Assembly: GCA_964617045.1 (NCBI GenBank)
Contig: CAZTVZ010000004.1
Span: 15,799-79,798 of the forward strand
Direction: 5' to 3'
DNA length: 64,000 nt
Source of the DNA: an uncultured Gammaproteobacteria bacterium
GTDB taxonomy: Bacteria > Patescibacteriota > Microgenomatia > UBA8517
Numbering within the stretch: the stretch's first letter is position 1; each line of letters begins with the position of its first letter. The position numbers and the translations under genes were made by a program. Shown one piece after another: positions 3,746-59,592 of the stretch. A model generated the notes under the pieces. It searched no databases. It was not told the DNA's origin and worked only from the letters and a program-made list of their open reading frames with translations.

Positions 3746-4672
3746 TTATACACAGCTTCCGTAATTTTCTTTTTTAGCACCACAATGTGGACACGTGGTT
3801 ATCCCAAAACCGGAGGGTATTTTCCCACCGCATTTTGGACAGGAAAAGAATCTTTCCTGACTCCAATTTCCCTTAAAGAAATTGTCAAAAGGAGAATTAT
3901 CTATAGCACTTACCATTCCCAAGGCTGCGACGTTGGATATTCCGCAGCTTCCGCTTGGTGATATGTAATAACCATATTTTTTTGCTTCTTCTTCAATTAG
4001 TGCTCCGAGCATAAGTTGATAATGAAAATTATTCATTATTAGACTGAGTTCTCTGGAGTATTTTTCGACAATATCCGAAGCAATCTTTGTTGTTACGACT
4101 TTTTCTTTCAGGTCATCCTTCTTCCTTATTCTGTTCCATACTTCAGATTTTCCGAAGATTTTCTCTAAATGGTTTATCCAATCTCCACCTTTTCCCTCGA
4201 ACGGAAATATATTACTTCTTACCTCTTCAACATTATTTTGTTTGGTGTTACCCATTAAACTAGCTATTTGCAGACATTCTTCTGCCGATTCTTTGCCGCA
4301 TATTGCCCTGCAAGCAATTTGTTTTCCTTTCTTTTCGAATATTACAAATCTGGATTCAGAATAGTCTTTTGATGGGGGAGAAATCCATATTGCCTGTCCA
4401 TTTTTTGTTTCGTTTGCCCATTTTTCAAGTTTCTCCGAAGCTTCGTATTCTTTTTTATCCTGTTCGGTACGGACTTCTATCACATCAAGTATCCTTCCGA
4501 ATTCATTTGAAACAAGTTTTCCTTCCCGATCAACGAATAATTCGTAATAAGTTATTTTTTCTTCCAGGGGAGCCTTTTTGTTTTCGATAAGGTATGAAGC
4601 AAAATCACTCTCAATTTGAGATTGATCTTTATCTTTCCAATTGCCGATGTTTAAAGCTAATCTTTCTGCCAT
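3746..4672 (-). CDS. Hypothetical protein with a C-terminal zinc ribbon.
   Basis: The 308-aa ORF ends CPKCGG...CPHCGAKK (4-Cys ribbon). I recognise no other domain. Confidence 0.45.
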   Translation of the reverse strand: MAERLALNIGNWKDKDQSQIESDFASYLIENKKAPLEEKITYYELFVDREGKLVSNEFGRILDVIEVRTEQDKKEYEASEKLEKWANETKNGQAIWISPPSKDYSESRFVIFEKKGKQIACRAICGKESAEECLQIASLMGNTKQNNVEEVRSNIFPFEGKGGDWINHLEKIFGKSEVWNRIRKKDDLKEKVVTTKIASDIVEKYSRELSLIMNNFHYQLMLGALIEEEAKKYGYYISPSGSCGISNVAALGMVSAIDNSPFDNFFKGNWSQERFFSCPKCGGKIPSGFGITTCPHCGAKKENYGSCV

Positions 4673-4836
4673 TTCTGCTCGGAATACTCGATCGTTAGTT
4701 TTCCGGCTTTAACGGTTGCGGCACAGCTTCGGATTTACACCGAATTCCTTGAAACACAATCGGTATGTTCATTATGCATTTAACATAATCGAAGTCAATA
4801 GGTTAATATTAATTAGATTAAAAGGGGGTGAGAATT

Positions 4837-8632: not shown

Positions 8633-9739
8633 ATGGTAAAAGTAGGGATAAACGGTTTTGGAAGGATAGGGAGATTGGCAACCCGAATTGCTCTTTTAAA
8701 ACATTCGGGAGATATGGATATTGTGGCTATTAATACTTCCGGTTCAATGAACGTATCCGGTTGGGCACATCTTCTCTCTTACGATACAACGTATCGCAAG
8801 TTCGAAAAAGAAGTTCGTTTTGAAGAAGTAAAAAAACCAGAAGAAGCAACAGATGAAGATCCATTAATCGGATATCTTTTAATCGATGGAAGAAAAATTG
8901 CAATTCTTGCCCAGAAAGATCCGGAGAAAATTCCTTGGGGAAAATACGGAGCGGATGTAATAATTGAGTCGACTGGAAAGTTTACTTCTCAAGAAGAAGC
9001 CGGAAAACATTCGGTTGGAGGAGCTAAGGTTGTTATTATTTCTGCTCCTTCCAAAGGGGGAAATGTGGGCACTTACGTAATATCCGTAAATGAATACAAA
9101 GGGGGAGGTCAAGTTATATCAAACTCATCATGTACCACCAACTGTGTTGCACCTGTTGCTGCAATAATGCATTCCAAGTTCGGAATAGAAAAAGCTGCAA
9201 TGACAACGATACATTCGTATACCGATGATCAAAATCTTCAGGATGGATCACACAAGGATTTGAGACGAGCAAGAGCAGCTGCTCAAAATATTGTTCCTAC
9301 GTCCACCGGTGCGGCAATTTCCACAACAGAAACCATTCCGGAGCTGGAGGGGCTTTTTGATGGAATGGCACTAAGGGTACCGGTAGGAACAGGATCTTTA
9401 ACTGACTTTGCCATTGTTACAAAAAGGTCGGTAACAATTGATGAAGTGAACAACGCATTTAAAGAAGCCGCAGATTCTCCCTTGTACAAAGGTATCCTGG
9501 GCGTGACCGAAGATCCTGTTGTTTCCTCGGATATCGTGGGAAGAAGTGAATCCGCGATTGTTGATTTGGGCCTTACTCAGGTAATTGCGGGCACTTTGGT
9601 AAAAATATTCGCCTGGTACGACAACGAATGGGGCTATTCGAACAGGCTTGTGGAACAAGTAATCAGAGTGGGAAATTCACTCGGATCAAAACTGGCTCCC
9701 AGCGATCCGATAACCTTATCATGGAGGGGGAATCAATAA
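8633..9739 (+). CDS. gap: Glyceraldehyde-3-phosphate dehydrogenase, type I.
   Basis: VGINGFGRIGR NAD-binding start, the catalytic motif SNSSCTTNCVAP, and WYDNEWGYSNR at the C-terminus. Confidence 0.95.
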   Translation: MVKVGINGFGRIGRLATRIALLKHSGDMDIVAINTSGSMNVSGWAHLLSYDTTYRKFEKEVRFEEVKKPEEATDEDPLIGYLLIDGRKIAILAQKDPEKIPWGKYGADVIIESTGKFTSQEEAGKHSVGGAKVVIISAPSKGGNVGTYVISVNEYKGGGQVISNSSCTTNCVAPVAAIMHSKFGIEKAAMTTIHSYTDDQNLQDGSHKDLRRARAAAQNIVPTSTGAAISTTETIPELEGLFDGMALRVPVGTGSLTDFAIVTKRSVTIDEVNNAFKEAADSPLYKGILGVTEDPVVSSDIVGRSESAIVDLGLTQVIAGTLVKIFAWYDNEWGYSNRLVEQVIRVGNSLGSKLAPSDPITLSWRGNQ

Positions 9740-10359
9740 TGGTTGACGGATTTACAGAAAGAAAAATAAAACAAATAGCATATTTCGGATTTGCGGATAC
9801 CGACCCCAACGATCCTTTATATAAAGAAGCATACGAAGTGTCAAAGTATTTAACCGAAAAAGGTTTCACCGCAATTAATGGTGGTGGCCCCGGTACAATG
9901 CGTGCGGTATCGGAAGGTGCAAAAAAGGCTAACGGAACAGCTATAGGGGTTACTTTTTATCCCAAAGATATTACCAATTTTGAAGGAAGGGACAAGGGCA
10001 ATCCGATAGATATCGAAATTAAAACCAAAAATTATTTGGAAAGAACCCTAAAACTTTTGGAACTTGGAGATGCGTACATTGTTTTCAAAGGAGGTACGGG
10101 AACGATTTCCGAATTCGCAATGGCTTGGGGATTGGGAAGATTATATTTTGGGCATCACAAACCACTGATTTTATACGGAGACTTCTGGAACAATATAATT
10201 AATTCTTTTATGGAAAATATGAAGATTAGATCTGAAGAATTGAAGGTGTATAGAATAGTCAAAACACCCGAAGAAGCGTTTGAAGCCCTCAATTATTTCG
10301 AAGAAATACTTCACAAGAGAGAAGAAGTGAGTGAAGACGAAAAGGCTTTTCAACTTTAA
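9739..10359 (+). CDS. LOG-family protein (cytokinin riboside 5'-monophosphate phosphoribohydrolase / SLOG-type).
   Basis: INGGGPGTMRAVSEGA and YIVFKGGTGTISE match the LOG/TIGR00730 PGGxGTxxE motifs. The ATG at 9739 overlaps the gap stop. Confidence 0.65.
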   Translation: MVDGFTERKIKQIAYFGFADTDPNDPLYKEAYEVSKYLTEKGFTAINGGGPGTMRAVSEGAKKANGTAIGVTFYPKDITNFEGRDKGNPIDIEIKTKNYLERTLKLLELGDAYIVFKGGTGTISEFAMAWGLGRLYFGHHKPLILYGDFWNNIINSFMENMKIRSEELKVYRIVKTPEEAFEALNYFEEILHKREEVSEDEKAFQL

Positions 10360-12184: not shown

Positions 12185-12961
12185 ATGGCTGATATCAACA
12201 TAGACAAATTTCTTCGAAATGATAAAGCGATTTTCCTTGCTTACGATCATGGATTTGAACATGGCCCAACCGATTTCAACGAAGAAACTATTGATCCGGG
12301 AAAGGTTCTCGAAATCGCCTTAAAAAGCGATGTTTTTACAGCAGTAATATTTCAGGAGGGAATTGCTCAATCATATTATCCGATAGGCGGAATCGATTCT
12401 AATAAATATCCTCCCCTCATTGTTAAGTTAAACGGTAAAACATCTTTCCATACCGGCGAGGAACCATATAGCCCTCTTCTTTGTACCGTTGACGAAGCAA
12501 TAAGAATCGGTGCATCCGGTGTTGGCTACACAATTTATGTTGGTAGTGAACACGAAGCAACAATGATGCAGGAATTTTCAACAATTGAAGACGAAGCACA
12601 TGCCAAGGGCTTAACAGTAACGGCGTGGATGTATCCAAGGGGTAAACGTGTCGAGGGAAAGGAAAACAGTAAAGATGTTGTTGCCTATGCTGCAAGGCTT
12701 GGAGAAGAATTGGGAGCCGATTTTATTAAAATACCTTACACTGGTGATCCCGAAAGCTTTTCCTGGGTAGTAAAATCTGCCGGTAAAGCACGTGTTCTTG
12801 TTTCGGGTGGAGTGAAGAAAGATAAAACAGAGTTTTTGAAAGATGTAAAAGATTTTATGTCCGTTGGGACGACAGGGATCGCTGTTGGAAGAAACGTTTG
12901 GCAATCTGACGATCCGATAGGTATGAGTAAAGAATTGGCGAATATTATCTATGGAAAATAA
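12185..12961 (+). CDS. fbaB: Class I fructose-bisphosphate aldolase, DhnA/archaeal type.
   Basis: LAYDHGFEHGP, the Schiff-base lysine region IKI(P)YTG, and VSGG are typical of DhnA-family aldolases. Confidence 0.7.
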   Translation: MADINIDKFLRNDKAIFLAYDHGFEHGPTDFNEETIDPGKVLEIALKSDVFTAVIFQEGIAQSYYPIGGIDSNKYPPLIVKLNGKTSFHTGEEPYSPLLCTVDEAIRIGASGVGYTIYVGSEHEATMMQEFSTIEDEAHAKGLTVTAWMYPRGKRVEGKENSKDVVAYAARLGEELGADFIKIPYTGDPESFSWVVKSAGKARVLVSGGVKKDKTEFLKDVKDFMSVGTTGIAVGRNVWQSDDPIGMSKELANIIYGK

Positions 12962-52421: not shown

Positions 52422-54290
52422 ATGAAAAAAACCGTGGCTATTTTTGCTTCAATATTGTCATTTTTGTTTGTCTTTGTACCGGTTTCGCATGCCGAGAAGG
52501 ACTATAACATCGACTCTGCGTATCTGGAGTATTCAATCAATCGGGACGGTTCGGCAAGCGTTTTGGAGAGAAGAGTCTATGATTTTGACGGCAGTTTCTC
52601 TTGGGCTGAGCAATACATTGAGCTTTCTCCATCCTGTGATCGGGGAGAACCATGCGAACCATACAAATTATCCAATATTTCGATTGCCGAAGGAGAGAAA
52701 ACATACACATTATCCGATTCCGGATTACCGTACACCTATGAGCTGGAAGAATCTTCGGATAGGGTGTACCTTAAGTGGCATTACAAAGCTTTAAACGAAG
52801 TAAAGACTTTCGATTTAAGATATACCATCGATAACGCGGTTACCAACCATCAAGATGTCTCGGAATTCTACTGGAAAATGATTGGTTCGGATTGGGATAA
52901 AGGAATTTCCGATGTTTTTGCAACAATAACACTTCCTTATCCCGTAACCGACGGAAATATTTGGGCTTACGGACATGGGCCTTTAAATGGGGAAGTCAGT
53001 ATTCTTTCTGAAACGGACATCTCTTATTCTGTAAAGAATCTCCCTTCAGGAAAAATGGCCGAGGCTAGGATTGTATTTCCAAAAAATGAATCTTTTGTTA
53101 CAGGAAGATCGGGAACCAAAACTTTGGATGAAATCCTGCAACAAGAAAAAGGTTATGGAGACAGAACAAGGGCAGCCCAACTTGCCGTACCGATTATTAT
53201 TTTTCTTCTTTGTTTGTTCCCCATATGGAGAGCGGTCAGGGTGTTTATGAAATGGCTTAAGTACGGCAAAGACAACAAGGTTCCGGAGATAAACTTGTCA
53301 GGAACATTACATGAACCGCCGTCCGATTTGGAACCGGCGTTGGTTGAATCTTTGCTTTCCGGTATTCCGACGGGAAAATCTATTGTGGCAACAATATTGG
53401 AACTTGCCCGTAGAAAAATATTAGCAATCGAATATGAGAAGCAAGGCAAAAAGACTCTTTTTGGTGCCAAAGAAGAATATTTCCTGATTCTCAAAAAGAC
53501 CGATTCAAAAGGTCTTTCTTCCAGGGAGAAGCAATTAATTGACTTTCTCTTTTCCTCTTCAGAAAAAATCAGTTTTAGCGAGGTAAAAGAACTACCCAGG
53601 CAAAAACCCACAAAAGCAAATACTTTTTGGAAAGAATGGAGGGATGATACCTCCAAAGAATTTGTTGATTTGGGCTTTTTCGATAAAGAATCTTACGATA
53701 TGTCCAACAAGTCCAAATTGGATTTGTTTTTGGTGCTAACCTTCGGTTTTATCTATATTTTTGTTCTTCCCGGAACAAGTTTGATTGGTGGAACAACGGG
53801 GTTGGCAGTATGGGCGATTATGCTTCCTATTGTGATTGTTTCAGCTATTTCGATTATTGTTTTCAGTTCGCTTATGAACAAAAAAACTGAAAAAGGGAAT
53901 AGAGAATATGCCGGGTGGTTGGCTTTCAAAAAATGGTTAAAAGATTATTCCGTAACCAAGAACTACTCAATCGACTCGGTTATCCTTTGGGAAAAATACT
54001 TGGTCTACGGTGCGGCGCTGGGCATTTCTTTAAAAGCCCTATCCCAACTTCCAATAAAATTTGGAGAGGCATATAAACATTCCGGTCTTTATGTAATCGG
54101 ATACCCTACAGGAAGTTTTGACGGAGGTTCTTTGGGAAATCTCGGAAGTTCTTTTGCAGGTTTAGAATCAAGTCTTTCGGGATTGTCGTCGAGTTTTGGA
54201 TCATATGGAGCACATGGGGTAGGATCTTCCGGAGGATTTTCCGGAGGAGGTGGCGGAGGAGGTGGAGGTGGCGGAGGAGGTGCCGGATAG
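52422..54290 (+). CDS. DUF2207-family membrane protein with a C-terminal poly-glycine tail.
   Basis: A signal peptide, a large extracytoplasmic N-domain, internal TM helices, and a C-terminus ending in about 20 consecutive Gly (GGFSGGGGGGGGGGGGGAG), which is characteristic of DUF2207 proteins. Confidence 0.6.
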   Translation: MKKTVAIFASILSFLFVFVPVSHAEKDYNIDSAYLEYSINRDGSASVLERRVYDFDGSFSWAEQYIELSPSCDRGEPCEPYKLSNISIAEGEKTYTLSDSGLPYTYELEESSDRVYLKWHYKALNEVKTFDLRYTIDNAVTNHQDVSEFYWKMIGSDWDKGISDVFATITLPYPVTDGNIWAYGHGPLNGEVSILSETDISYSVKNLPSGKMAEARIVFPKNESFVTGRSGTKTLDEILQQEKGYGDRTRAAQLAVPIIIFLLCLFPIWRAVRVFMKWLKYGKDNKVPEINLSGTLHEPPSDLEPALVESLLSGIPTGKSIVATILELARRKILAIEYEKQGKKTLFGAKEEYFLILKKTDSKGLSSREKQLIDFLFSSSEKISFSEVKELPRQKPTKANTFWKEWRDDTSKEFVDLGFFDKESYDMSNKSKLDLFLVLTFGFIYIFVLPGTSLIGGTTGLAVWAIMLPIVIVSAISIIVFSSLMNKKTEKGNREYAGWLAFKKWLKDYSVTKNYSIDSVILWEKYLVYGAALGISLKALSQLPIKFGEAYKHSGLYVIGYPTGSFDGGSLGNLGSSFAGLESSLSGLSSSFGSYGAHGVGSSGGFSGGGGGGGGGGGGGAG

Positions 54291-54294
54291 TCTA

Positions 54295-54663
54295 TAATTT
54301 CCGTGCACCTTAAAAGGGGCATTCGCGGAAAGCAATTTATGGTTGTTTCCCGGGGTTGCTTCAAAAATACCACCGGATGTTACAAGCTCGGGAGAATCCT
54401 CAATGCGTCGAAGAGTCCCGCCGGCCTCTCAGTAAAGGATAGTCAATGGCGACTATCGCCTCCAATGAGTTGTATACAGCCCAAGAAAGGAACGATCAAG
54501 GTTGTTGCCGCAAGACCCTTTAGGGGTTTACTTGGTACTGTATAGCCTGTGCATCAAGAAAACATCGGAACAAGTTTATCCGGTAGCAAAGTTATTAGGT
54601 GATCCCACCCAAAAGACCCGCAGGTTATATGCGAAATTCGTGTATATCTGCGGGTATTTTATT
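54295..54663 (+). ncRNA. Candidate structured non-coding RNA (unidentified): GC-rich, free of credible ORFs, ending at an intrinsic terminator.
   Basis: An intergenic stretch of about 370 nt with local GC around 50% against a background around 38%, and many short GC hairpins. The ORFs in it (80 and 61 aa) have no SD and an Arg/Gly/Cys-rich composition. It ends at the hairpin CCCGCAG...CTGCGGG plus a U-run at 54617-54663. Confidence 0.35.
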
Positions 54664-54696
54664 GACATATCTGTGCCTGTTAACTAATATTAATAT

Positions 54697-54933
54697 ATGT
54701 TTGGTTGGGGATATCCGAGATTTGAAGGTTTTTTGGGTGTAATGTTTATGCCTTTTGTCATAATCATTGCTCTTTGGGATCTGTTTTGGAAGGCAAAAGG
54801 GATGTGGAAAGCGGCCAAGCACGATTCTCTGGGATGGTTTATAGCCTTGATGATTTTTAACACGGCCGGAATTTTACCGATTCTTTATCTCTATGTTTTC
54901 TCCAAAGACTCAAAGGCCAAAAAGAAGAAATAA
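54697..54933 (+). CDS. PLDc_N-domain small membrane protein.
   Basis: 78 aa, two TM helices with ALWDLFWK...W......GILPILYLY, matching the PLD-nuclease N-terminal (PF13396-like) pattern. Confidence 0.55.
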   Translation: MFGWGYPRFEGFLGVMFMPFVIIIALWDLFWKAKGMWKAAKHDSLGWFIALMIFNTAGILPILYLYVFSKDSKAKKKK

Positions 54934-54948
54934 GCACTTTTGGCTTGG

Positions 54949-54976
54949 TTGACAAATACTCCCGTTTTGATATAAT
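54949..54976 (+). promoter_or_regulatory. Near-consensus sigma70 promoter TTGACA-16-TATAAT (candidate rRNA promoter).
   Basis: TTGACA at 54949-54954 and TATAAT at 54971-54976, about 210 nt upstream of the mature 16S 5' end. Confidence 0.6.
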
Positions 54977-55030
54977 TTCTTTCGCACGATGAGAACCTAA
55001 TTTACAGGTGGCCGAATAGGCAGTTTACAA

Positions 55031-55050
55031 CCGCCTCCTGGCGGTTTTTT
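55031..55050 (+). terminator. Terminator-like hairpin in the 16S leader (possible attenuator, or the 3' end of a short RNA).
   Basis: CCGCC-TCCT-GGCGG followed by TTTTTT, about 50 nt downstream of the predicted transcription start. Confidence 0.4.
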
Positions 55051-55185
55051 CTTTCTCAGGGGTGCGAGGTTAACTTCCCTTCAGGGTAACAACTTCATAA
55101 TTTGAACCTTAACAATCGAGATGTGACTGGGAATGTATAAAGACGTGCATAGACAATCGTCAAATGTCTATCACCGTCACTTTTT

Positions 55186-56644
<1,459 letters not shown>

Positions 56645-56787
56645 AAGGAGTATCAACACGGGTTTTGCATATTCGTATTTCGGATATGTAAAAAAAGTTT
56701 GTACACCCCCTTTTTAAGACCGTAGTTTTGAGGGTTTCAAAACAGGCGCCGTTCACAGTCACATCTCGAAGGTTAAGGTAAAAAAAT

Positions 56788-56812
56788 ACCCGCACTAAAA
56801 TGCGGGTTTTTT
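56788..56812 (+). terminator. Rho-independent terminator after the 16S rRNA.
   Basis: ACCCGCA-CTAAAA-TGCGGGT followed by TTTTTT. Confidence 0.7.
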
Positions 56813-56886
56813 GATGGGAAAATAACGAGGGAATAAATTGAAGAAAGAAAGAAGAATTTATTACAACGAGAGAAAAGATTTAAGTA

Positions 56887-56932
56887 GGGGACGCTAGTCA
56901 CCAATGATTAGATGAAAGCGTCCCCACTTTTT
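56887..56932. terminator. Second hairpin terminator between the 16S and the convergent minus-strand gene (possibly bidirectional).
   Basis: GGGGACGCT-(21 nt)-AGCGTCCCC followed by ACTTTTT on the + strand. It lies 18 nt beyond the stop of the minus-strand gene that ends at 56950. Confidence 0.5.
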
Positions 56933-56949
56933 AATTGTTTACAACCTGA

Positions 56950-59592
56950 TTACTTTTTGGGCGGCAGAAGCATTATTCCGGAATCAATCTTCCAGTATTC
57001 CGCTACCCATTTTTGGGCTTCTTCGTATGACATGTATTTGTTTTCAACCAAATACATTACGTAGTCATATCCGTTAGGCCCTTGGAATTGGCGGGTAAAT
57101 TCACCTGCTTTGGTGATGTCCCAGCCACCGACAGTACGAGAGCATGATACATACCAACTTCTCCAGCTGGAACTGTAACCCCATACTTTTTCGTATAACT
57201 CACCGGATGCATCGAATGCTACCCAATTGTCGTGAGTGTATTTTTTCTCAAGGTCGATGATGTAGTAAGTGCCGTCAAATCCTTCGAAAGGTTTGGCGTC
57301 AATATAGACCTGTTTGATTTTGTGTTTACCAACTTCAACCAGTCGATATTCGACACCTGCTTCATCCAAAACCTTGGGGTCAACCGAAACAAGAATATAG
57401 AACGGATGGATAGAGCGCATATAAAGGCTTGTGCCTTCCGTCTTTATTCCCCAGTATCCGTCGAGACATACCATACACTCACCTCTGGCGTATTCAACCG
57501 TGACTAAATCGTCAGGTTCTTTTGCCAGTTCTTCTTGGCGAGGTCCGCATGTCGGACACTGAGGTTTCGGTCGTTTAACGTAGCAGCTTCCGACTTCAAA
57601 GGAAATTTCACCATCACCCAAGAACCCTTCAATGGCTTTATATGTACCGGAGTATTTGCCGGCCTTAAAGTCAACTTCGTATGTTCCAGGACCGTAGGTT
57701 TCACCTTCGAGTTCGAGGATTGCTCCTTTTACTTCGATTGTGACCAACGAATGGGAAATTCTTTCCTTCATGTTGAAAGCACATGCTTGGACCGTAATTT
57801 TTACCAGAGGGTGGTCTTTAAGGCAGACTTCATCTTCTTTTATGTTGAAGGTAAAGTCTTTTTCAAAGCCGTCTGGCCAAATTACATGGAAAGATGCTTC
57901 TGCACCTTCCGTTACAAATGGGTCAATCCAATTTCCGCTTGTGGGTGTAGTTGCCGTAACAATTCCACCTTCTGAAGCTTCAAGTCCGATTGACCATCCA
58001 TTGCAGTCTTTATCGACAAGAGGGTTAATCTGATGCTCGAGAACAACAAGACAAGATTTTTCTTCCTTCACTGTGAAGGCGTCGATTTTTGTCTTATCGT
58101 ATATTTCTCCGGGAACTGTGGGGATTAATACTTCAGCGACACTTGCTTCTTCAAGCTTATAAATGTCACCCCATGTACCCGATGCATACTGTTTAACTTC
58201 TCCATCAACTGCAAACCAAGCGTACCATCCCTTACAATCTTGTTCGACACCCGACGTTACCTTGTGGGCAACTTGGCATTTTTCTGGTTCATTAACACTT
58301 TGAGCGGGTACGATTTTGTTGTCGTAAAGCTCCCCATCATTTAATGGAATGTTGATGCTTGCCGCTGTTGCTTCTTCAAGGACGAATGGTTTTGTCCAAA
58401 TACCTTTATCGTAAGCGGTTTCAACACCGTCGATAGAGTAGTAGGCAACCCATCTTTCACAATCGGATTCAATTCTCCAAGTAACCTTGTGGATTAATTG
58501 GCATTTTTCACTTTCTTTTAATCCCTGTGAAGGAATCTCAGAAAGGTTGTATAGCTCACCCGGATTTTTGGGGAAGCTATATGCAGGAACGGTTACGTCC
58601 TCAAGTTTGAACGGTAAAGTCCAATTGCCCGAGGAATAAACGACCTTGTTACCCTTATCGATGGAATACCATGCTTCCCATTTATCGCAATCACCGCCGA
58701 TACCATATTCAACCGAATGGGTTGCCTGGCATCGACCTGCTTCTGTGATTTCTGGGAAATTAAGGGTTTTTGTTGTTTGGTCCGGAAGTGTAATCGTATA
58801 GCTTTTTGCCGGTGTAGATTCAAGAATCCAAATATTGGACCAAGGACCGCTGTCAACGGTAATCCACATTGTGACGGGACTTCCATTATCGAAAATTCGA
58901 TAATATCTTTCCCATCCGGAACAATTTTCTTTGATGTCCTTGATTTCCACTGTATAGGAATGCGGTGGTGGTGGAATAACACATCCTGCTGCCAATACTT
59001 CCGCACCGGTCGCACCCCAACCATATAACGTGGTCAGGTTTTGTCCGGGGTAGGTATGTTGGCCATTTTTATCCCAATACGTGAAGCTCGGGATAATATC
59101 CCCATTGTTCTGATGCTGATCGTGACCCTGCTTAAAAACAGCGTCGTCATCGACGGTGATTAGGTTGAAGGGGTTGGTCTGGCTTGCGGTTGCATGACAA
59201 AGAGTGACAGGAACATGTTGGGCGCAGAAAAGCGAACCTTTTATGCTATGGGAATCCTTGACAGACCCCATAGTCGATCGCAATTCGACATACGCTTCAA
59301 CATCTCCAACGGTATTCGCCGGTGGGATCCACTCAACAGTAAAGCTACTGTCTTCCCATACTGGCCCTGACGAATTTTTACTGGCAACAACAATTCCGTT
59401 CAACTTGATCCAACCAGAGGCCATTCGTGCGTAGCCGGTCTTATTCACAATGGAAATAATGACCTTGGAGCAATCTATTTGGCCGGTTTTATTAGATGTT
59501 TGAAGGGATTCCGCTGCCGCCGGTTGTGCTGCAACTAAAAGCATTGTAAGCACAATAAAAATTGAGCTCAAAAACAACATTGAACGCTTCAT
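56950..59592 (-). CDS. Large secreted protein with 4-5 tandem two-cysteine repeats of about 85 aa and a conserved C-terminal domain shared with the next gene.
   Basis: Signal peptide MKRSMLFLSSIFIVLTMLLVAAQPAAA. Repeats follow the pattern C-Q-x-x-H-x-V-...-D-C-x-x-W-x-A-(W/Y)-(Y/F)-(S/A)-(I/V)-D-G-...-G-(I/N)-W-...-F-x-LEE. The C-terminal roughly 210 aa, beginning CPTCGPRQEE, are homologous to the C-terminus of the 59884..61119 protein. SD AAAGGAGGTAAT. Confidence 0.7.
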   Translation of the reverse strand: MKRSMLFLSSIFIVLTMLLVAAQPAAAESLQTSNKTGQIDCSKVIISIVNKTGYARMASGWIKLNGIVVASKNSSGPVWEDSSFTVEWIPPANTVGDVEAYVELRSTMGSVKDSHSIKGSLFCAQHVPVTLCHATASQTNPFNLITVDDDAVFKQGHDQHQNNGDIIPSFTYWDKNGQHTYPGQNLTTLYGWGATGAEVLAAGCVIPPPPHSYTVEIKDIKENCSGWERYYRIFDNGSPVTMWITVDSGPWSNIWILESTPAKSYTITLPDQTTKTLNFPEITEAGRCQATHSVEYGIGGDCDKWEAWYSIDKGNKVVYSSGNWTLPFKLEDVTVPAYSFPKNPGELYNLSEIPSQGLKESEKCQLIHKVTWRIESDCERWVAYYSIDGVETAYDKGIWTKPFVLEEATAASINIPLNDGELYDNKIVPAQSVNEPEKCQVAHKVTSGVEQDCKGWYAWFAVDGEVKQYASGTWGDIYKLEEASVAEVLIPTVPGEIYDKTKIDAFTVKEEKSCLVVLEHQINPLVDKDCNGWSIGLEASEGGIVTATTPTSGNWIDPFVTEGAEASFHVIWPDGFEKDFTFNIKEDEVCLKDHPLVKITVQACAFNMKERISHSLVTIEVKGAILELEGETYGPGTYEVDFKAGKYSGTYKAIEGFLGDGEISFEVGSCYVKRPKPQCPTCGPRQEELAKEPDDLVTVEYARGECMVCLDGYWGIKTEGTSLYMRSIHPFYILVSVDPKVLDEAGVEYRLVEVGKHKIKQVYIDAKPFEGFDGTYYIIDLEKKYTHDNWVAFDASGELYEKVWGYSSSWRSWYVSCSRTVGGWDITKAGEFTRQFQGPNGYDYVMYLVENKYMSYEEAQKWVAEYWKIDSGIMLLPPKK

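Follow-up and report, generated by a model that had tools for sequence, protein, structure and literature searches.

Bacterial small RNAs (sRNAs) can derive from the 3' untranslated region (3' UTR) of an mRNA and share its terminator, as CpxQ and SroC do. Here we describe a candidate element of this general kind, a 371-nt non-coding block at 54291-54661 on the plus strand of a 64,000-nt stretch of contig CAZTVZ010000004.1, the whole of which is referred to below as the window, from an uncultured lineage of the Candidate Phyla Radiation (CPR). Like the CpxQ and SroC type of RNA, the element directly follows a stop codon, lacks a convincing promoter of its own, is closed by an intrinsic terminator held in common with the upstream mRNA, and is conserved well beyond what that terminator needs. 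Unlike that type, it is about 370 nt and thus several times longer, its constraint spans the whole length rather than a short seed, and it is known from sequence alone. No such 3'-UTR RNA has been described from a CPR lineage within the literature searched. CPR genomes are about 1 Mb and tightly packed, and in such a genome a recently added, near-invariant non-coding block of 371 nt stands out.

Orphan bacterial RNAs are common. The element resembles the orphan candidates found by GC-IGR (GC-rich intergenic region) and DIMPL searches in the Breaker lab (PMC8723152, PMC6429828, PMC11109978), in that it fills a long spacer with a GC content well above that of other spacers; those motifs, however, were accepted on covariation across many representatives, whereas the element is represented by two shallow clades and shows no covariation. 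On balance we favor, by a modest degree of belief, reading 54291-54661 as a plus-strand non-coding RNA element that is under functional constraint and restricted to one lineage, and it is probably a new lineage-specific RNA. "Something lineage-specific" had been one of the options offered by a first-pass annotation of this DNA, and it is the option that survives; the block is conserved in one genus-level group and absent from outgroup junctions. The features that make up the locus are the following.

52422..54290, plus strand: DUF2207 membrane-protein gene, 622 aa (open reading frame, with PF09972/PF20990 Pfam domains on its homologues)
54291..54661, plus strand: the element, an inserted non-coding block of 371 nt
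54293..54298, plus strand: TATAAT hexamer, possible -10 box, just past the DUF2207 stop codon; conserved except in the singleton L016
54611..54664, plus strand: intrinsic terminator, a 22-pair hairpin (54611-54660) with core ACCCGCAGGU.../...AUCUGCGGGU, then UAUUUUAUU
54662..54696, plus strand: DUF5652 promoter, TTGACA (54662-54667), 17-nt spacer, TAATAT (54685-54690), 6 nt, ATG
54697..54933, plus strand: DUF5652 gene, small membrane protein, 78 aa (PF18893, E 5.7e-24)

From the DUF2207 stop codon (54288-54290) to the ATG at 54697 the gap measures 406 nt, in a window where most gaps between open reading frames (ORFs) are shorter than 60 nt. The first-pass annotation had reported an ORF-free intergenic region of about 400 nt here, and this description holds, with mechanical ORFs only in 54291-54696, the longest of 80 aa with a GTG start (54303-54545). 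The end of its interval does not hold, as the last 35 nt (54662-54696) are the DUF5652 promoter and lie outside the element. GC content is 45.9% over 54291-54665 compared with 39.5% for the whole window, at the 93rd percentile of 375-nt windows, and the remaining intergenic spacers are mostly 20-38% GC. The earlier figure of about 50% GC is right for roughly the first 200 nt and too high for the block as a whole, and the GC of the 54100-54399 windows is partly raised by the GGN codons of the DUF2207 poly-Gly tail. The lack of a ribosome-binding site had also been counted against coding; this is weak evidence and a poor argument in this genome because only 11 of the 51 mechanical ORF starts in the window have a Shine-Dalgarno (SD)-like motif within 20 nt upstream, on admittedly crude start calls.

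Relatives of the locus were reached via a 90%-identity cluster of DUF5652 proteins (P0023, P0068-70), which gave 22 Logan/ENA contigs (L007, L010-L030) from ERZ724080-84, SRR24756002-04, SRR26350596/97, ERR13731078 and other samples. With the window these make 23 sequences, all of which keep the gap of about 406 nt. They form two clades, whose identity to the window over 1.9 kb is about 99% in one and about 92% in the other. Across the 23 sequences, 19 of 375 columns vary in the element and 7 of 31 in the DUF5652 promoter stretch; at third codon positions the counts are 101 of 333 for DUF2207 and 22 of 79 for DUF5652. In pairwise comparison of the window with L020 or L007, the element differs at 12 of 371 positions (3.2%), while four-fold sites diverge by 32-33% in DUF2207 and by 38% in DUF5652, and codon positions 1+2 of both genes by 0.6-3.3%. 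The element is thus about ten times more conserved than synonymous sites (Fisher p 1e-21 to 3e-22 against four-fold sites). Constraint is even along its length, the sequence from 54598 onward is invariant, and divergence is back at the neutral level within about 30 nt on either side. The 11-12 fixed differences in the element follow the clade split. Together, these comparisons indicate that the block is functional and, because it is so much more conserved than synonymous sites, that it is not a decayed gene remnant. Conservation among relatives had been named beforehand as a point on which an RNA could fail, and the outcome is divided: within one genus-level group the element is strongly conserved, whereas the next lineages lack it at this locus.

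That absence was seen in the next-nearest lineage (L008, L009, L134; JGI samples 3300063138, 3300065077, 3300063078), which shares 66% protein identity in DUF5652 and 87% DNA identity from DUF5652 into the 16S rRNA gene. In L008 and L009 the junction reads ...GGGGTAA-aacttg-TTGACA-17-TAATAT-6-ATG, meaning that the DUF2207 stop codon runs into the DUF5652 promoter with no block between them; L134, found through P0042, belongs to the same lineage and covers the downstream side only. In L006, whose DUF2207 is the closest homologue outside the group, a DUF5652 ORF starts 19 nt past the stop codon. Given the empty junction in L008/L009 and in L006, DUF2207 abutting DUF5652 is the ancestral state, and the 371-nt block is a derived insertion that begins exactly after the DUF2207 stop codon and ends at the -35 box, made in the common ancestor of both clades, which are closely related Microgenomates-like species groups. 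No homologous block was present in L002 and L003 (DUF2207 upstream of 16S) or in L006 (DUF2207 adjoining DUF5652), no element in two other DUF5652 neighborhoods (L031, L032), and a DUF2207 search of genome contigs gave one locus, 29% identical, that was also without it. Homologues of DUF2207 in the protein database are at most 48% identical and carry source names such as Woesebacteria and Shapirobacteria, in keeping with a Microgenomates/CPR placement, and a second protein search without the poly-Gly tail gave no further homologues. Both protein-database searches missed the DUF2207 proteins of L007 (2410-4278) and L010-L014, which are 92-99% identical and whose contigs have no Pfam entry for them; this is an index gap rather than biology.

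The element was also examined for coding capacity. A 1-nt indel at 54318 falls inside the 80-aa ORF, the only long ORF of the element, and the shared substitutions are spread 3/4/3 over the three phases (by hand count of coordinates) with no codon periodicity. The 80-aa ORF returned only repeat-protein artefacts when searched against 1.84 billion protein representatives, and tblastx of the element found nothing. With a frameshifting indel, no third-position excess, and no homologues, a protein-coding gene was rejected, and by these comparisons the element cannot be protein-coding. The possibility raised earlier that the region is the decayed remnant of a protein gene fares no better, given the negative tblastx, the lack of homologues, and the strong constraint.

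At its 3' end, the element closes with a terminator hairpin of -25.2 kcal/mol (z = -6.3 relative to shuffles) that is invariant in 23/23 sequences. The first-pass annotation had ended the region at an intrinsic terminator, built on the hairpin CCCGCAG/CTGCGGG (54617-54623 / 54648-54654) followed by TATTTTATT, and the stable hairpin and U-tract, unchanged in all 23 sequences, bear this out; the internal hairpins that it listed are all present as well (GATAGTC/GACTATC at 54438-54444 / 54451-54457; GGCGA/TCGCC at 54448-54460). A simple terminator scan missed the plus-strand terminator, which we attribute to a 22-pair stem with internal bulges that exceeds the limits of the scan (20 counted pairs, loop of 3-8 nt).

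Three observations bear on the strand. When the window alone was folded to its minimum free energy (MFE), 6 of 10 shared substitutions at paired positions kept a standard pair on the plus strand (P = 0.004), compared with 0-1 on the minus strand; the null re-placed substitutions on random same-base positions, and the use of a fold from the window alone avoids circularity. The U-tract lies 3' of the terminator hairpin on the plus strand, and the promoter-like hexamer on the minus strand (54678-54683) varies between clades. Taken together, these observations favor an RNA on the plus strand, and the fold predicted for it by RNAalifold is plausible. It would consist of the following parts.

54298-54308 with 54549-54561, plus strand: predicted closing helix (RNAalifold)
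54317..54361 (alignment columns 27-71), plus strand: predicted hairpin of 18 pairs, with between-clade changes in loop and bulge
54373-54424, plus strand: predicted hairpin (RNAalifold)
54428..54469 (RNAalifold hairpin 54425-54472), plus strand: predicted hairpin domain, CUCA...UGAG around GAUAGUC-AAUGGC-GACUAUC
54473..54544, plus strand: predicted branched domain (RNAalifold), UAUACAG/CUGUAUA closing, two inner hairpins
54564-54584 and 54598-54609 (GGUG-AUCC-CACC), plus strand: two small predicted hairpins upstream of the terminator

Within this fold, 5 of 112 pairs show one-sided, pair-keeping changes. The closing pair of the 54428-54469 domain (148/167) is clade-specific, GC in 4 sequences and GU in 4, and the 54473-54544 domain has one-sided, pair-keeping changes at 54477, 54496, and 54518. 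An unpaired GCCUCCAAUGAG stretch with an anti-SD-like CCUCC lies 3' of the 54428-54469 domain.

Several points weigh against an RNA element under selection, and most concern its structure. In principle, the block may differ so little because it is younger, and not because of selection. With the terminator included, the folding z was -3.1 on the plus strand and -3.8 on the minus strand; without it, z was only -1.5 and -2.1, on a scale where coding background scored -0.05 +/- 1.26 and pieces of 16S rRNA -1.5 to -2.5. The terminator-free folding energy is thus only about 1-1.5 standard deviations better than coding background, and the energy argument is weak because z falls this far once the terminator is cut. 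None of the 112 RNAalifold pairs shows a compensatory change and the covariation term is -0.51, in an alignment that is 98% identical and, for that reason, has a power to detect covariation near zero. The sequences used to test the consensus fold are those from which it was built, the window-only MFE and the consensus fold differ on long-range pairings, and the best-supported hairpin (54317-54361) has a U-U mismatch (54322/54356) in the window. No homologue was found outside one genus-level group, which leaves the element without family-level support. Finally, its 5' end, processing, and transcription are read from the sequence. The structured RNA proposed by the first-pass annotation therefore stands in that the region is non-coding, constrained, and terminator-ended, while a structure is only compatible with the data, the covariation check among relatives this close having given no compensatory pair.

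No terminator was found between the DUF2207 stop codon and the element (up to 54611), which makes DUF2207 the likely source of transcription into it. The TATAAT hexamer at 54293-54298 has no acceptable -35 and no TG extension, and it was not reported by the promoter scan. As it has neither a credible own promoter nor a terminator ahead of it, the element would most likely be transcribed by read-through from DUF2207 as a 3' UTR of about 370 nt. Processing of this UTR may yield a stable RNA, some 330-370 nt long, that would probably fold as a chain of some 6-7 hairpins. The terminator would keep upstream transcription from reaching the leaderless DUF5652 promoter and, 290 nt beyond, the 16S promoter. 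Since the constraint spans the whole body and not a short seed, our guess is that a protein-binding or scaffold-type regulatory RNA is likelier than a base-pairing sRNA. If the RNA acts in trans, it would join a very small number of lineage-specific regulatory RNAs described in this uncultivated radiation.

More tentatively, the element could represent a class of multi-hairpin RNA of medium size (about 330-370 nt) that has not been described before, gained recently in one Microgenomates (CPR) lineage and from the outset held by selection as strong as that on amino-acid-changing sites; we regard this as possible and would not claim more for it. Such an RNA might, for example, serve as the scaffold of a new ribonucleoprotein or sequester a regulated protein in an organism with a minimal genome. 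If true, the clean presence/absence junction would allow the origin of an RNA to be dated to a single insertion event.

The same observations on transcription can be read in another way, in which the block is purely a cis-acting 3' UTR of DUF2207, affecting mRNA stability or regulation, joined to an insulating terminator, with no separate trans-acting RNA. The lack of a credible own promoter (neither -35 nor TG extension) and of a terminator between the DUF2207 stop and 54611 agree with such a UTR. So do the outgroups, in which no terminator separates DUF2207 from the DUF5652 promoter, so that the insertion added an insulator. An insulating terminator needs only about 50 nt, however, and the other 320 nt or so are equally constrained, and the outgroups manage without the block. 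A 15-nt complementarity between the 3' coding end of DUF2207 and the element (I1) was considered as a possible pairing and rejected as not conserved; a sister-clade substitution disrupts it, which argues against a conserved pairing between the mRNA and its UTR. We consider a purely cis-acting UTR somewhat unlikely, and continue to prefer a constrained RNA element in its own right.

Control of the downstream gene was considered separately. That gene had been annotated as PLDc_N; it is DUF5652 instead (PF18893, E 5.7e-24), and the Pfam matches at E<=1 did not include PLDc_N. Among the relatives, the DUF5652 promoter keeps both hexamers unchanged while its spacer varies, and outgroup L008 has identical hexamers and spacing. 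The start has no SD motif and, because the -10 box lies only 6 nt from the ATG, the DUF5652 mRNA is probably leaderless. In L006, a TATAAT lies 5 nt before the DUF5652 ATG. A riboswitch or 5' leader of DUF5652 was rejected, since invariant promoter hexamers lie between the terminator and the ATG and the same promoter, present in an outgroup without the element, is older than the insertion; DUF5652 is thus not controlled via the element. Pairing of 54364-54378 with the 3' arm of the terminator, to which it is 80% complementary (I2), suggested an anti-terminator, an idea that was dropped because DUF5652 has its own promoter.

As the chief alternative account of its low divergence, the insertion could be a young selfish or horizontally acquired element, whether site-specific and mobile, MITE-like (miniature inverted-repeat transposable element), or an intron-like remnant, with the 3% divergence reflecting age. 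Its presence relative to two outgroups, its GC content above that of the host, and its sharp boundaries fit such an origin, and L026 looks like a product of recombination: over the element region (2-379) its diagnostic sites match partly the sister clade and partly the window clade (for example 54337, 54349, 54477, 54500), a mosaic that suggests recombination between clades or a chimeric assembly. A mobile element would, however, have to account for the same site in both clades and for the 11-12 fixed differences that track the clade split. A search of the 64-kb window and of about 190 kb of related loci gave no second copy. When 189 kb of window and loci were scanned with a covariance model built on the block (R1), it found the element itself and, on the minus strand, its palindromic terminator only. 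Likewise, blastn against phages and plasmids gave no match; two 15-mers gave 40 and 61 matches in IMG/VR, none of which was extended by nhmmer and which we take as chance; and in JGI metagenomes a 21-mer gave 0 matches and an 18-mer 9, with identity over just 18-21 nt, the choice of motif in such k-mer searches being a lottery. Metagenome contigs assemble through the element and break in the GGN repeat of DUF2207, not at the edges of the element. The repeat search gave no convincing terminal inverted repeats and no repeated boxes, and reading of the junction gave no target-site duplication. On the single copy in the window and the roughly 190 kb of loci, and on the lack of terminal inverted repeats and of a target-site duplication, a MITE or dispersed repeat was rejected.

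Group I introns, a further form of this alternative, are common in Patescibacteria, and some are invisible to RF00028 (PMC13011429). Like them, the element is an insertion of a few hundred nt that is GC-richer than its host. Unlike them, it is intergenic, with no exons to ligate, no Intron_gpI (RF00028) match at E<=10, no split or intron-containing tRNA by ARAGORN, and no transposase or homing endonuclease nearby, and the strong whole-length constraint is unexpected for an intron on which nothing depends. A mobile or horizontally acquired origin seems to us improbable.

We also compared the element with known RNA families. In the window, Rfam 15 identified the 16S rRNA (55180-56642), six tRNAs, and a borderline AdoCbl-II (adenosylcobalamin) aptamer, none of them in the gap. 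At E<=10 on 651 nt, and on 381 nt with permissive filters, there was no match to RNase P RNA, transfer-messenger RNA (tmRNA), 6S RNA, signal recognition particle (SRP) RNA, or a riboswitch; that run listed matches of about 10-14 bits, and a score below about 10 bits would go unlisted. What it did list was noise: miRNA models, mir-2002 among them, matched the terminator hairpin, part of narK matched a hairpin of 7 bp, and SNORD47 fell within DUF5652. ARAGORN, whether at default or relaxed settings, in tmRNA and permuted modes, or with introns allowed, gave nothing credible in the element; at 50-70% thresholds it made one "permuted" call, which overruns the input sequence and whose "tag" reads through DUF5652. 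The families proposed by the first-pass annotation, RNase P RNA, 6S RNA, tmRNA, SRP RNA, and riboswitches, thus found no match either at the gathering score or at E<=10.

The remaining comparisons were made partly by eye. In RNase P RNA, P4 is formed by CR-I (GAGGAAAGUCC...) with a downstream CR-V (...ACAGAA..GGCUUA). The first-pass annotation had noted a weak P4 resemblance in GAAGAGUCC at 54410-54418, and this did not hold up, as no complementary P4 3' strand occurs anywhere downstream. Relative to the consensus, GAAGAGUCCCG (54410-54420) has an extra base, the sole downstream CGGG is the 3' arm of the terminator, and no ACAGAA...GGCUUA-like CR-V was seen on reading the gap sequence. RNase P RNA (RF00010/RF00011) was rejected on the lack of a covariance-model match, a P4 partner strand, and a CR-V, and tmRNA (RF00023 and permuted forms) on the lack of a tRNA-like domain or tag frame by ARAGORN and of an Rfam match. 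6S RNA is a rod of about 180-200 nt with a large central bubble; it (RF00013) was rejected on the lack of an Rfam match at E<=10 and on a consensus fold that is multi-branched and about 330 nt rather than a rod, a shape argument that is weak in that the fold is unvalidated. A CsrB-like sponge was rejected since the 6 GGA motifs counted by eye are about the chance expectation, as were an origin of replication (oriC) and DnaA boxes, the block being GC-rich with one poor box by eye. On these searches, the element belongs to no Rfam family and is neither RNase P RNA nor a member of another catalogued RNA family.

An extremely diverged and relocated housekeeping RNA, such as RNase P RNA, tmRNA, or a long 6S-like RNA, would fit several of these features, and relocation of an RNA gene would also resemble an insertion. 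Among 35 circular CPR genomes, 10 had a diverged RNase P RNA revealed only by sub-threshold cmsearch scores (Lui et al. 2021, PMC8172020), and it was because Rfam thresholds can miss the RNase P RNAs of CPR bacteria in this way that we looked for the P4 pseudoknot by reading. Like the RNase P RNAs of RF00010/RF00011 and their CPR forms (PMC8172020), the element has the right size class (some 330-370 nt, which would also suit tmRNA), is enriched in GC, and carries GAAGAGUCC, a string weakly like that of P4. Unlike them, it has no RNaseP_bact_a/b match, nor one to tmRNA, 6S, or SRP RNA, at E<=10 in a run that listed matches of about 10-14 bits; GAAGAGUCC has no downstream partner, there is no CR-V, ARAGORN finds neither a tRNA-like domain nor a tag frame, the consensus fold is multi-branched and not a 6S-like rod, and the element is absent from the locus in neighboring lineages, which is not decisive alone. 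We regard a housekeeping RNA as very improbable. One false lead is removed by this, as the element is not the "missing" RNase P RNA; separately, the annotation of the neighboring gene passes from PLDc_N to DUF5652.

Constraint acting on DNA or on small proteins instead of RNA is likewise hardly credible: a 25-codon ORF (54446-54523) does have an AAAGGA motif 6 nt before its ATG, and, of the 6 sites that vary within it, 3 are third positions with synonymous changes by hand reading, but third-position-equivalent sites are equally conserved in every frame, at about 3% in the element versus 23-27% at third positions of the flanking genes, the long ORF carries an indel, there are no protein homologues, and an evenly constrained, GC-rich DNA site of 370 nt has no obvious precedent and showed no repeated boxes.

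The surroundings of the element yielded a number of further observations. DUF2207 ends in a poly-Gly tail whose coding sequence consists of imperfect GGN repeats of 9/12 nt (family D1, 54231-54287), with synonymous differences between clades; this repeat is the start point of many relatives' metagenome contigs and is probably an assembly break point. Downstream of DUF5652, the 16S leader (54934-55179) contains, at 54949-54976, a TG-extended promoter of perfect sequence (TTGACA-16-TATAAT) and, after it, a terminator-like hairpin with a T-run at 55029-55056, the hairpin being kept in L008 with a loop change. The leader also contains a TTCAGGGTAACAA stretch, which we take to recall boxB/boxA antitermination signals, and only 1 of its 246 columns varies among the relatives. 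The 16S rRNA gene (55180-56642) has no tRNAs or 23S rRNA gene after it and is followed by an 880-aa ORF on the minus strand (56950-59592), an arrangement that fits the unlinked rRNA genes reported in many CPR genomes (PMC8172020). In L003 (complete genome CP129472.1, 8594-11896), the 16S downstream of DUF2207 is interrupted, with split Rfam matches, and LAGLIDADG ORFs lie at 9455-10303 and 12382-12816. The AdoCbl-II riboswitch aptamer (4689-4762, minus strand) scored 37.3 bits versus a gathering score of 36.5 bits and sits in a 415-nt gap upstream of a minus-strand ORF (3746-4672). Finally, gene orientation switches at about 55000-57000 from almost all plus strand (5-55 kb) to minus strand (57-64 kb), and GC skew passes from about +0.1-0.19 to about 0 past 56 kb; this switch could mark a replication terminus region, or could be a strand effect only.

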